DNA of 64,000 nucleotides from the NCBI RefSeq assembly GCF_003018255.1, contig NZ_CP027440.1, one strand, 5' to 3'. The notes under the pieces are model-generated. The model was given only the letters and a program-made list of their open reading frames with translations, did no database searches and had not been told where the DNA came from. A program made the position numbers and the translations under genes. The stretch comes from Escherichia coli. GTDB lineage: Bacteria; Pseudomonadota; Gammaproteobacteria; Enterobacterales; Enterobacteriaceae. Positions 1 through 35,690 of the stretch are shown here, one piece after another. Each line of letters starts with the position of its first letter. The stretch's first letter is position 1.

Positions 1-353
1 CAATATAAAGCAGAGTGAAGGATAAATTTTGTGAATAAAGTATCATTATTTAATGATTTTGTGAATGTTTAAATGTCTCAGATAATTTGTTTAAGCGTTA
101 TTTATATTTGTGGCTTATGAGTCAGCGTGAATCATATCTAATATTTTTTACGATTTTTAGTTAAAAACGGCACTATTGTTATATTCCTCACGTTCCAGGA
201 AATCAGCGGATTTACTCATATTATGCAGCGGGATACTATCCATCGGCCTGCTGAAGTTGGATTAAAAATTCGAAAGTGCACACCTTATATTTCTCTATAT
301 ACGTATTCCTTTTGGAAAGCGTAGGGTCTCTTTTATTTCAGGGAACGTAAATA

Positions 354-1748
354 ATGAAAAAATCGACATTATCTTTAGCCATCGGTTTATTATTGGCATG
401 TAGTACCGGAATGGCAAAAACACAGCATTTAACGCTGGAACAACGCATGGCATTGCTGGAAGAACGCCTGGAAGCGGCAGAAATGCGGGCAGCAAAAGCA
501 GAGAGCCAGGTTAAACAGCTGCAGACACAACAAGCCGCTGAGATCCGCGAAATTAAGGCTGCCCAGGGCAATACGCCGGTAAATGGACAGGCAACGGCGG
601 AATCTGCAAAGAAAAATTCCACCTCACCTAATCTTTTGCTCTCAGGTTATGGCGATTTAAAAATCTACGGCGACGTAGAATTTAATATGGATGCGGAAAG
701 TAATCATGGCCTTCTGGCAATGACCAACGCTGATGTGAATAGCGATCCCACTAATGAACAGTGGAATCTCAATGGTCGTATTCTGTTAGGTTTTGATGGT
801 ATGCGAAAACTGGATAATGGTTATTTCGCCGGGTTCTCCGCACAACCGCTGGGGGACATGCACGGTTCAGTAAATATCGATGATGCGGTATTCTTCTTTG
901 GCAAAGAAAACGACTGGAAGGTCAAAGTAGGTCGTTTTGAAGCCTACGATATGTTCCCGCTGAATCAGGATACCTTTGTTGAACATTCCGGTAATACTGC
1001 GAACGATCTTTATGACGATGGCAGCGGTTATATCTATATGATGAAAGAGGGCCGCGGGCGCTCTAACGCTGGCGGTAATTTCCTCGTCAGCAAACAACTT
1101 GATAACTGGTATTTTGAATTAAACACGTTACTTGAAGACGGAACATCTTTATATAATGACGGTAATTATCATGGACGCGATATGGAGCAGCAGAAAAATG
1201 TTGCTTATCTGCGTCCAGTAATTGCCTGGTCGCCGACGGAAGAATTCACCGTTTCCGCAGCGATGGAAGCGAACGTAGTAAATAATGCTTATGGTTATAC
1301 CGATAGCAAGGGTAATTTTGTCGATCAGTCCGATCGTACCGGCTATGGTATGAGCATGACCTGGAATGGCCTGAAAACGGATCCGGAAAATGGTGTCGTG
1401 GTTAATCTTAATACCGCCTATTTAGATGCTAATAATGAGAAAGATTTCACTGCCGGGATTAACGCGCTGTGGAAACGTTTCGAGCTCGGTTATATCTACG
1501 CGCACAATAAGATTGATGAATTCAGCGGTGTAGTTTGTGATAACGACTGCTGGATTGATGATGAAGGGACGTACACCATTCACACCATTCATGCGTCTTA
1601 TCAGTTCGCTAATGTGATGGATATGGAGAACTTTAATATTTACCTCGGGACGTATTACTCCATTCTGGATAGCGACGGTGATAAAAAACACGGTGATGAT
1701 ACTGATGACCGTTACGGGGCACGCGTTCGCTTTAAATACTTCTTCTGA
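354..1748 (+). CDS. putative outer-membrane beta-barrel porin with N-terminal coiled-coil extension (LamB/ScrY/OprB-like; function unassigned)
   Basis: 464-aa ORF with ATG at 354 after an AT-rich upstream region; signal peptide MKKSTLSLAIGLLLACSTGMA; Ala/Glu/Gln-rich heptad-like helix at residues ~25-70; aromatic C-terminus (RVRFKYFF) typical of OM beta-barrels. Not a gene I recognise from K-12 at this position. Confidence 0.6.
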   Translation: MKKSTLSLAIGLLLACSTGMAKTQHLTLEQRMALLEERLEAAEMRAAKAESQVKQLQTQQAAEIREIKAAQGNTPVNGQATAESAKKNSTSPNLLLSGYGDLKIYGDVEFNMDAESNHGLLAMTNADVNSDPTNEQWNLNGRILLGFDGMRKLDNGYFAGFSAQPLGDMHGSVNIDDAVFFFGKENDWKVKVGRFEAYDMFPLNQDTFVEHSGNTANDLYDDGSGYIYMMKEGRGRSNAGGNFLVSKQLDNWYFELNTLLEDGTSLYNDGNYHGRDMEQQKNVAYLRPVIAWSPTEEFTVSAAMEANVVNNAYGYTDSKGNFVDQSDRTGYGMSMTWNGLKTDPENGVVVNLNTAYLDANNEKDFTAGINALWKRFELGYIYAHNKIDEFSGVVCDNDCWIDDEGTYTIHTIHASYQFANVMDMENFNIYLGTYYSILDSDGDKKHGDDTDDRYGARVRFKYFF

Positions 1749-1755
1749 TGAAGTC

Positions 1756-1782
1756 GCGGTGCTGGATATTTTCCGGCACCGC
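1756..1782. terminator. inverted repeat (gcggtgc...gcaccgc) between the convergent porin-like gene and rhaM; probable bidirectional terminator
   Basis: 7-bp inverted repeat with T-rich loop in the 40-bp gap between two convergent stop codons. Confidence 0.45.
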
Positions 1783-1788
1783 AACTCA

Positions 1789-2103
1789 TTAAGGCAGGTA
1801 AAACACTTCTTGCAGCTCGCTACTGACTGGGCTGTTATCCGGGTTAGTTGGCATAACGTCGGTCATATATTTCCACCAACGTTGGCAAACATCAGTACTG
1901 GCTACCGCATTCCACCGTTCTTCAGATTCAATCTCTACCGTGGCAAACAGCAGATTACGCGCTTTGTCGAGGTAAATGGCGTAGTTATGCGCACCGTGAG
2001 ATTTCAACACTGCTTCCAGTTCCGGCCAGATTGGATTATGACGACGCTGATACTCTTCGTGGGCGTCGGGGTTAACCTGCATGACAAAGGCTTTGCGGAT
2101 CAT
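1789..2103 (-). CDS. rhaM: L-rhamnose mutarotase
   Basis: 104-aa translation [28 protein letters not shown] matches RhaM (YiiL); directly downstream of rhaD. Confidence 0.95.
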
Positions 2104-2112
2104 GTTTGCTCC

Positions 2113-2937
2113 TTACAGCGCCAGCGCACTGGCGAGTGGTGTAACGCCGAAACGCTGGCCGAGCGCTATCAGCTCTTCACGACTGATGGTCTGTTTCATG
2201 CCGCCCATCGAATAAACCTTCACTAATACTTGTGCTGATTTTTCTGCGGTGTCGATTAAACCGAATGTTTCATCCAGTGTCGGACCGCTGCCGAAGACGC
2301 CGTGGAAGGGCCACAACACCAGCGAATGTTTTTGCATTTCCTGTGCGGTCGCCTGGCCGATTTCGTCGGTGCCGGGCACCATCCACGGCAAAATGCCGAC
2401 GCCATCCGGGAACACTACCAGACATTCGGTGCTGCCTTCCCACAGTTGGCGAGTGAAGACCGCGGTGTCGTTTTCCAGTACGTAGGTAAGGGCGATCAGG
2501 TTGGTGGCATGGCAGTGCATGATCACCCGATCTTTACCGTTGGTGGCTTTAATGCGCTCGCAGTGGGAGAGAAAGTGAGCCGGAAGTTCGGAAGTGGGGA
2601 CGGCTTTGTTGGTTAACCCCCAAAGAATGTGGTAGCCCGCGCCGTCGCTGTCGACTTTTACGATGCCTAAGTTAGCCGCAGGATCAAGCTGGACGTTACG
2701 GAAGAATTTGCCTGAGCCGGTGACAATAAACGGTGTATTTGCCAGTAAAGGCATGGGCTGGCTGAGCGGGATATAGCGCGGTTGTTGGTGAAAATTGTCG
2801 TGATATGGTGCGATATCGGCGTCATCCAGGCGCAGCGTCAGGTTGCCGCCGTTGCGCTCGTCCCAGCCTTTCAGCCAGGCGTCGGTGGTGGCTTTAATCA
2901 TTCCCTGGACAAACCAGGACTGAGTAATGTTTTGCAT
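2113..2937 (-). CDS. rhaD: rhamnulose-1-phosphate aldolase
   Basis: ORF-track ORF extends to 3030; trimmed to the ATG giving [21 protein letters not shown] (274 aa); synteny in rhaBAD. Confidence 0.95.
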
Positions 2938-2989: not shown

Positions 2990-3117
2990 TGTAGGCCGGA
3001 TAAGGCACTCGTGCCGCATCCGGCAATCAATGCCTGATGCGACGCTGTCGCGTCTTATCAGGCCTACAACTATTGCCGACCCGTAGGCCGGATAAGGCAC
3101 TTGTGCCGCATCCGGCA
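2990..3117. repeat. REP/BIME cluster (three REP units in alternating orientation)
   Basis: Repeated gccggatgcggc...cttatccggcctaca palindromic units between rhaD and rhaA. Confidence 0.8.
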
Positions 3118-11902: not shown

Positions 11903-12042
11903 GTGTAGGCCTGATAAGACGCTATCAGCGTCGCATCAGGCATCCTGCTCAAATGCCGGATGCGGCGTAAACGCCTTATCCTGCCTACAAAACCCATAAA
12001 TTCAACAGGTTTTGTAGGCCTGATAAGCGTAGTGCATCAGGC
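11903..12042. repeat. REP/BIME cluster (three REP units)
   Basis: gtaggcctgataag...gcatcaggc and gccggatgcggcg...cttatcc palindromic units between yiiM and cpxA. Confidence 0.8.
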
Positions 12043-17034: not shown

Positions 17035-17134
17035 TGCCTGATGCGCTTCGCTTATCAGGCCTACATGAATTCTGCAATTTATTGAATTTGCGAACTTTTG
17101 TAGGCCGGATAAGGCGTTCGCGCCGCATCCGGCA
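17035..17134. repeat. REP/BIME cluster (two REP units)
   Basis: tgcctgatgcgcttcgcttatcaggcctaca and tgtaggccggataaggcgttcgcgccgcatccggca between pfkA and sbp. Confidence 0.8.
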
Positions 17135-30221: not shown

Positions 30222-30752
30222 TTACGCTTTGTAGCTTAATTCTTCGATGGTGTGGAAATGGTTGGTATAGATGCAAATGTCGCCTGCAATATCCAACGCC
30301 TTTTCAGCAATTTCACGGGCGCTAAGTTCAGTGTTTTCTAACAGCGCGCGCGCCGCAGCCTGGGCGTAAGGGCCGCCGGAGCCGATAGCAATAAGATCGT
30401 TTTCTGGCTGCACCACGTCACCGTTACCGGTGATGATAAGCGAAGCGGTTTCATCCGCGACTGCCAGCAGTGCTTCAAGTTTGCGCAGCATGCGATCGGT
30501 ACGCCAGTCTTTTGCCAGCTCAACGGCGGCTTTGACCAGATGGCCCTGATGCATTTCCAGTTTACGTTCAAACAGTTCGAACAGCGTAAAAGCATCCGCA
30601 GTACCGCCCGCAAAGCCCGCGATGACTTTGTCGTTGTACAGACGGCGGACCTTTTTCACGTTGCCTTTCATTACGGTATTGCCCAACGTGGCCTGACCAT
30701 CACCAGCGATGACCACATGGCCGTTACGGCGTACGCTTACTATAGTTGTCAC
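30222..30752 (-). CDS. hslV: ATP-dependent protease subunit HslV
   Basis: 176-aa translation [38 protein letters not shown]. Confidence 0.97.
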
Positions 30753-30844
30753 GAGCTGACCCCTTGGTTACGAATACAGAGTACAAACCCCGTACAAAAG
30801 TACGGGGCATAATGCAATTATAGATGGGGGGGATTTTGAGGGTT

Positions 30845-33076: not shown

Positions 33077-35434
<2,358 letters not shown>

Positions 35435-35438
35435 TTAG

Positions 35439-35690
<252 letters not shown>

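Follow-up and report, generated by a model that had tools for sequence, protein, structure and literature searches.

A carbohydrate porin gene convergent with rhaM in Escherichia coli: a probable orphan RafY orthologue at a polymorphic locus

What does the porin-like gene beside rhaM do in Escherichia coli, and does it stand in place of the frv operon that K-12 carries there? We addressed this question in a stretch of 64,000 nucleotides (nt) of E. coli DNA (NCBI RefSeq assembly GCF_003018255.1, contig NZ_CP027440.1; hereafter the window), in which the gene lies at 354..1748 on the + strand, and for which the initial annotation had described a porin-like protein, possibly sugar specific, resembling the sucrose porin ScrY in the position of frv. 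In our assessment the gene is very probably a chromosomal RafY orthologue, left in E. coli as the orphan of an old raf locus and encoding a wide passive sugar channel.

The open reading frame of 464 amino acids (aa) and its signal peptide were borne out by the open reading frame listing and the sequence. The coding sequence begins with an ATG and ends with a TGA stop codon at 1746-1748, and a Shine-Dalgarno sequence, GGGAA (341-345), sits 8 nt 5' of the start codon. Residues 1-21 (MKKSTLSLAIGLLLACSTGMA; 354..416, + strand) read as a signal peptide with predicted signal-peptidase-I cleavage before KT, and residues 3-16 form a predicted helix (AlphaFold2). We considered a lipoprotein, as LLAC at residues 13-16 fits the PROSITE lipobox, and rejected it because the position of Cys16 is not a Cys in the orthologues (LLLVANTGFA, then KT). 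The Ala/Glu/Gln-rich segment (LTLEQRMALLEERLEAAEMRAAKAESQVKQLQTQQAAEIREIKAAQ, residues 26-71), which had been called a coiled coil, proved to be a good candidate for one: residues 26-70 (429..563, + strand) show a clean heptad register with L, M, A, V or I at 11 of 13 a/d positions, a heptad score equalled by just 15 of 5000 shuffles, and a continuous single AlphaFold2 helix at residues 28-70 with a predicted local distance difference test score (pLDDT) of ∼86. This predicted periplasmic helix, to which the PF11471 score given below also applies, is followed by a low-complexity, disordered linker (residues 71-99; 564..650, + strand; pLDDT < 50 at residues 72-98) that is the most variable part of the porin across orthologues. 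The remainder, residues 100-464 (651..1745, + strand), is a predicted 16-stranded beta-barrel with a loop at 195-240 and a C-terminal RFKYFF, in agreement with the beta-rich domain and aromatic C-terminus that had been noted. RefSeq names the product ‘carbohydrate porin’ (WP_000749944.1), and the identical protein occurs on at least 1000 contigs. No family model matched in an NCBIfam scan of the porin, in which the top result was an irrelevant coiled-coil model at E = 0.14.

Membership in the sugar porins, as initially proposed, was confirmed by a full-length Pfam match: PF16966 (‘Porin-like glycoporin RafY’, Porin_8; TCDB 1.B.15) aligned over model positions 1-372 of 372 to residues 104-464 (E = 3.7e-154, 513.7 bits), and the domain is present in all 50 of the 50 aligned porin relatives. 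The two families that the initial annotation had named for checking, LamB and OprB, were not the ones found; PF02264 (LamB family) was absent among the Pfam matches of the porin even at E <= 10, and the protein is not a sequence member of either the OprB or the OmpF/OmpC-type Pfam families. At the N-terminus, PF11471 (Sugarporin_N, the periplasmic extension of sugar porins) matched residues 27-54 weakly (E = 0.06); across 50 aligned family members it scored E <= 1e-3 in 8 and E <= 0.1 in 19, and at the family level the RafY-type extension is likely, by its sequence, to be homologous to PF11471. Remoter RafY-family members, of 350-390 aa, have no N-terminal extension at all. Sequence searches of the PDB with the whole protein, a 50-sequence profile and the N-terminal 79 residues found no relatives, and the RafY family is without any solved structure.

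The AlphaFold2 model, built from a 50-sequence alignment (mean pLDDT 82.4, predicted template modelling score 0.72), contains 16 long strands between residues 100 and 463. Its best Foldseek matches were OprP, OmpU, BpsOmp38, VhChiP, Omp32, OprB, OmpF, PorB and DcaP, with ScrY and LamB missing from the top 50, and alignment of the family profile to K-12 LamB (hhalign) gave a probability of 0.2%. Because of these matches and the low LamB probability, the barrel is predicted to be of the 16-stranded trimeric-porin type, nearest OprP, OmpF and DcaP, and not the 18-stranded type of LamB and ScrY. The RafY family is also listed with 16 strands in TCDB, according to PMC4827864. The likeness to ScrY thus probably stands for the N-terminal extension (PF11471) but not for the barrel, which has no PF02264 match and 16 predicted strands, and as far as the sequences indicate it goes no further than the N-terminal coiled coil. 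Strands 5 and 6 are joined by a long conserved loop (residues 195-240), and many family-invariant residues lie in or near it (G193, E196, A197, P202, D206, Y228 and R234-R236).

The closest system of assigned function is RafY of the raffinose plasmids (pRSD2 type). On conjugative IncF plasmids, genes for a LacI-family regulator, an alpha-galactosidase, a major facilitator superfamily permease and a glycoside hydrolase of family 32 (GH32) are followed by one for a 464-aa homologue (rafR-A-B-D-Y). Taking as reference the porin behind rafR-rafA-rafB-rafD on pYDC107_184, we found 79% identity and 87% positives over 450 aa. RafY function is covered by Ulmke 1997 and Andersen 1998, as cited in PMC4809568, PMC12987596 and PMC4827864, and PMC4809568 mentions a chromosomal ‘rafY2’ without raf genes in O157:H7, with no functional data given there. 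Plasmid rafY is closest to the E. coli chromosomal gene (78% protein identity, compared with 68-70% for the other genera sampled), at a synonymous distance (dS) of 0.95 to that gene and with dS saturated to the other genera sampled; because identity and dS are both nearest to the E. coli gene, the plasmid copy points to an Escherichia-like source.

The raf connection extends to the chromosomes of other genera. We scanned one genome per species and kept the best 80 of 382 relatives. The closest homologues outside E. coli occupy the same place, convergent with rhaM, in Citrobacter (81-85% identity) and Kluyvera (83%); the orthologue of Klebsiella sp. B345 (about 75%, or 74-75% by alignment) and those of Raoultella are likewise convergent with rhaM. 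Among the best 80 of 382 relatives, all 34 loci of other species at >= 67% identity share a neighbourhood of frvBA, azlCD, a helix-turn-helix-cupin regulator, the porin gene and rhaM-rhaD. Homologues of rafR-rafA-rafB, whose products share 64-77% identity with the plasmid proteins, immediately precede the porin gene in Klebsiella spallanzanii, K. grimontii, Raoultella terrigena and Enterobacter sp. JUb54. Those of the 80 relatives that fall to 57-65% identity are paralogues from other loci, and six belong to permease-GH32-porin operons. None of rafR, rafA, rafB and rafD stands beside the gene at the E. coli porin locus, and rafAB occur in just 672 of 5426 E. coli genomes. The most plausible reading is that the porin gene once belonged to an old chromosomal raf locus and is now its orphan. 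A chromosomal raf cluster at the E. coli locus itself was considered and set aside: the diverged rafRABD copy that we examined is in an unrelated island with a different porin. This island, in E. coli EC21GDE043 (L096 5886-15588), is flanked by insertion sequences (IS), shares ∼81% DNA identity with the plasmid operon and also carries crr, a kinase gene and a gene for a different 498-aa ‘carbohydrate porin’; there are ∼228 records of the diverged type.

To the second part of the question, the answer depends on the strain. We counted locus forms in 5426 complete E. coli genomes, where the porin gene was at least 80% covered in 2556 (47%) and the frv operon at least 80% covered in 4185. The K-12 type of junction, with frv and without the porin gene, makes up 52% (2828 genomes); about 1391 genomes (26%), among them O157:H7 and B strains, carry both; and 1165 (21%), the form nearest the window, have the porin gene and a yiiG/frv-deletion/porin junction. 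That K-12 is without the porin gene was correct, as its locus reads yiiG-frvR-frvX-frvB-frvA-rhaM. The statement that the porin is present ‘instead of frv’ was right for the genome nearest the window, which has no frv, but not for the ∼1391 genomes of the O157:H7 type, whose order is yiiG-frvRXBA-porin-rhaM. Since frvRXBA and the porin gene stand side by side in the latter, their presence and absence are independent insertions or deletions, a common strain polymorphism and not a replacement of one by the other. The orthologue neighbourhoods contain both frvBA and the porin gene, and the frv-plus-porin form is therefore ancestral for Escherichia, with the porin lost by K-12.

The window starts 353 bp upstream of the porin gene, so its own frv status is taken from its nearest relatives rather than seen. 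The nearest genome (L001, 99.9% identical) is collinear with O157:H7 save for two deletions: a clean one of 4.79 kb, which begins within yiiG, taking its last 19 bp, and ends 18 bp 5' of the frvA start, and one of 470 bp from the 5' part of yiiG. In that genome yiiG (L001 11310-12000, just upstream of where the window starts) is a pseudogene: ∼470 bp are missing from its 5' part, and the frv deletion also took its final 19 bp. On the other side of the polymorphism, K-12 has 111 unrelated bp in place of a 1723-bp porin segment (L003 11013-11123, compared with L004 7712-9434 of O157:H7). These 111 bp carry their own hairpin, and the junction appears to be common to all 2828 porin-less genomes; this suggests that loss of the porin through the 111-bp junction was a single old event. 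Porin alleles disrupted by IS1 and IS30 also exist. In E. coli HS30-1 (L005 6288-7077), IS1 removed yiiG, frv and the porin gene except for its last 75 bp, and in GPEC1031 (hit H3) an IS30-family transposase is annotated inside the region matching window positions 1-2200, with the BLAST match in two pieces. We also noted a copy 100% identical to the chromosomal-type porin of the window on CP057400.1 (15145-16536, hit H21), a 97.6-kb sequence labelled as a plasmid; a piece of chromosome may have been captured there, or the contig may have been wrongly assigned.

Where the gene is present, its coding sequence appears to be maintained. The ratio of nonsynonymous to synonymous substitution rates (dN/dS) between the window and O157:H7 alleles is 0.06 at a dS of 0.09, values against other genera range from 0.04 to 0.07, and that between Citrobacter lineages is 0.05. 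Such values indicate strong purifying selection on the porin sequence and are therefore evidence against a decaying relic.

The upstream region holds two conserved elements. The first, a site resembling those bound by the cyclic AMP (cAMP) receptor protein CRP, is TGTTATATTCCTCACG (TGTTA-N6-TCACG; 177..192, + strand), centred 169.5 nt 5' of the ATG; its pattern, TGT[GT]A-N6-T[CA]AC[AG], was found upstream of 35 of 39 orthologues, the half-sites being invariant and the spacer variable. Such conservation of pattern suggests catabolite control of the porin gene, as for other sugar porins. The second is a palindrome or 5' hairpin, CGTATTCC-TTTT-GGAAAGCG (302..321, + strand), ending 19 nt 5' of the Shine-Dalgarno sequence. 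Most orthologues have a stem-loop at the same upstream place with unrelated stem sequences, for example CGTCTTCC/GGAAGACG, GAGATCTC/GAGATTTC, AAGGTGAATA/TATTCACCTT and TGGATT/AATCCA. Conservation of this hairpin was judged by per-sequence folding z-scores against control regions: the region from -68 to -18 had a mean z of -1.9, compared with ∼0 in two control regions, and z was below -2 in 18 of 36 orthologues, compared with 2 of 36 for the controls. RNAalifold on a MAFFT alignment of the 5' regions gave no consensus structure, because the stems have no sequence in common, and an Rfam search of window positions 1-2200 returned nothing, even at E <= 1. Both elements and the Shine-Dalgarno block were kept while the flanking sequence diverged among orthologues, and the plasmid rafY copy has neither the CRP-like site nor the 5' hairpin. 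The stem-loop at 302-321 might act as an element of the 5' leader or, as a palindrome, serve as an operator.

Downstream, the gene is convergent with rhaM (1789..2103, - strand), as had been annotated, across a gap of 40 nt. A hairpin between the two stop codons was identified by folding (1756..1782), with an 11-bp GC-rich stem and a 5-nt loop; in its 61-nt context it folds at -29.7 kcal/mol (z -6.3) on the + strand and -26.6 kcal/mol (z -5.8) on the - strand. It had been taken for a terminator common to both genes. The hairpin itself is real by these z-scores, but it is followed by no T-run on either strand, and because of this the terminator scan did not list it and its function as a terminator is unproven. 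A GC-rich hairpin, different in sequence each time, occupies the gap between porin gene and rhaM in every orthologous locus, and K-12 also has a hairpin at this place, unrelated in sequence.

Putting these observations together, we propose the following model for the RafY orthologue. Sequence features would have the precursor exported by the Sec system and cut after Ala21, and the C-terminal aromatic signal would direct the porin to the Bam machinery for insertion into the outer membrane. In the structural model the product is a 16-stranded barrel, most likely a trimer, whose strand 5-6 loop may line or constrict the pore, and the N-terminal helix would project into the periplasm, where it probably forms a three-stranded coiled coil like that of ScrY. 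By analogy with plasmid RafY, which is 79% identical, it would be a wide passive channel for di- to oligosaccharides too large for OmpF/OmpC; the raffinose family, sucrose and maltodextrins are candidate substrates, and the mode would be general diffusion and not saturable sugar binding. What is said here of RafY function reportedly goes back to the work of Ulmke in 1997, by way of papers that cite it. The E. coli gene is a single gene with its own upstream region and would be a remnant or local form of an old raf locus next to the rhamnose operon, and the conserved candidate site suggests that its expression is probably cAMP-CRP dependent.

Several points weigh against this model. Our literature search found no experiment on the chromosomal copy, its sole mention being ‘rafY2’ in O157:H7. 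The pore properties could differ from those of the plasmid protein, because 21% of residues differ between the two sequences, and a monomer model is the source of the predicted trimer, pore size and coiled-coil state. One half-site of the CRP-like element (TGTTA) is weak, and among orthologues the element lies anywhere from 153 to 235 nt from the ATG; the promoter was not located, the sole promoter-like match in the upstream region (262-291) being at chance level. Finally, 52% of E. coli genomes do without the gene and in some others it is IS-disrupted; it is therefore dispensable.

Three other explanations of the gene deserve comparison with the RafY reading. From the proximity to the rhamnose genes, the initial annotation had raised a sugar- or oligosaccharide-specific channel, and in its full form this would be a rhamnose or rhamno-oligosaccharide channel working with the adjacent rha regulon. 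The convergent adjacency is indeed kept in Escherichia, Citrobacter, Kluyvera, Klebsiella, Raoultella and others, and in ∼24 of 34 orthologous loci rhaM follows the porin gene directly, after a gap of 40-300 nt. However, convergent genes with a strong hairpin between them are not co-transcribed; other genes intervene before rhaM at four loci (L014, L032, L037 and L043), and at two (L029 and L038) rafRAB take the downstream place of rhaM. Rhamnose, moreover, is a monosaccharide and passes general porins, and K-12, which is rhamnose positive, is among the 52% of E. coli genomes without the porin gene. Where a catabolic partner is present, it is a cluster of alpha-galactosidase and LacY-type permease genes and not the rha genes. 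The sugar-porin part of the proposal thus survives, but the adjacency to rhaM looks like old inherited gene order with a raffinose-type partner cluster, a functional link of the porin to rhamnose is not supported by gene order, strain distribution or partner genes, and we regard the rhamnose channel as very improbable. Scarcely more credible, and if anything less so, is a sugar-specific porin of the LamB/ScrY family with 18 strands, an aromatic greasy slide and saturable sugar binding. In its favour are the ScrY-like domain order, the family-level match of the N-terminal extension to PF11471 and a published tree (PMC4827864) that puts the RafY family nearest the sugar-porin family. Yet PF02264 is not matched at E <= 10, the LamB profile probability is 0.2%, the profile search of PDB sequences was empty and the model has 16 strands, not 18; the title of Andersen 1998, as cited in PMC4827864, also speaks against a greasy slide and saturable binding for plasmid RafY.

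The remaining explanation is that the gene is a silent relic of the lost raf cluster, neither expressed nor useful and heading for deletion. There is no cognate rafRAB beside it, one shared 111-bp replacement accounts for its loss in 52% of genomes, IS1- and IS30-disrupted alleles occur, and our search turned up no expression data. This explanation is hard to reconcile with a dN/dS of 0.06 at a dS of 0.09 in E. coli and of ∼0.05 between genera, with the conservation of the CRP-like site, upstream hairpin and Shine-Dalgarno block, or with a frame intact in the alleles examined and 2556 genomes holding at least 80% of the gene; we consider it unlikely, though less so than the rhamnose and LamB/ScrY channels. 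The RafY orthologue remains our clear preference. The initial annotation had set against itself the case of a common E. coli gene at this position with a known function unrelated to porins, or of no predicted barrel; the gene is common there (47%), but its function is not unrelated to porins and a barrel is predicted. A more ambitious joint reading goes further: the rhaM-adjacent gene would be the ancestral enterobacterial rafY, an Escherichia-like copy would be the source of plasmid rafY, the E. coli gene would be an orphan, catabolite-controlled large-channel porin, and an undescribed 5' hairpin leader, kept by compensatory turnover, would set its expression. We hold this combination to be doubtful, if worth stating; if true, presence in about half of strains would change outer-membrane permeability to oligosaccharides, and possibly to bulky antibiotics, from strain to strain.

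The gene is intact, already annotated, from a described family and common in E. coli, which makes the finding real but ordinary and its practical value small. What is new here is modest: a locus polymorphism with three forms, an ancestry in the raf locus, and the conserved CRP-like site with the 5' hairpin, these last two elements being leads on control of the gene. Annotators should enter the gene as rafY2, an orphan porin of the RafY family; labels that make it a LamB/ScrY-type porin or an frv replacement should be avoided. The three locus forms matter when K-12 is compared with B, O157:H7 or extraintestinal pathogenic strains, as K-12 is without an outer-membrane channel present in 47% of strains. 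By analogy with the related Klebsiella porin, which alters fitness, the E. coli porin might affect gut oligosaccharide use or outer-membrane permeability. Elsewhere in the window, two elements of the repetitive extragenic palindromic type match Rfam naRNA4 (2994-3064 and 11908-11985); a ∼92-bp unit of this type is present in about four to five tandem copies between rhaD and rhaA in K-12 and in fewer in the window type. Other Rfam elements were as expected: a ClpQY promoter (30750-30807), an L31 ribosomal-protein leader (35419-35471) and the ES036 small RNA (17057-17098).

Among known systems, ScrY has the order of signal peptide, coiled coil and barrel that is predicted for the window porin, its N-terminal coiled coil being periplasmic, and ScrY and LamB (PF02264; TCDB 1.B.3; PDB 1a0s, 1mpr) are, like the RafY family, outer-membrane sugar channels. 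OprP (2o4v), OmpF/Omp-Pst1, VhChiP and DcaP (6eus) are 16-stranded trimers, with just 8-14% sequence identity to the window porin and no Pfam family in common with it. GlyP of Klebsiella pneumoniae belongs to the same Pfam family, PF16966, and is described as a larger-pore alternative carbohydrate porin whose derepression gives a nutritional fitness gain in a strain without the main porins (bioRxiv 10.64898/2026.03.29.715108). Its operon, made up of permease, hydrolase and porin genes, is controlled by the LacI-type repressor GlyR, whereas the E. coli gene has no adjacent regulator. Paralogues of the GlyP type are just 57-62% identical to the window porin and occupy other loci (L073-L075, L078, L089 and L092), and by their gene content the six permease-GH32-porin operons fit the GlyP operon of Klebsiella. 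Plasmid RafY has the same length (464 aa) and domain order as the chromosomal porin, and the two genes are homologous in DNA from codon 21 through the stop codon. The chromosomal copy differs in having no adjacent rafRABD and in its signal peptide, upstream region and downstream hairpin, and between the two proteins the first 100 residues have diverged much further than the barrel (dN 0.37 compared with 0.08).

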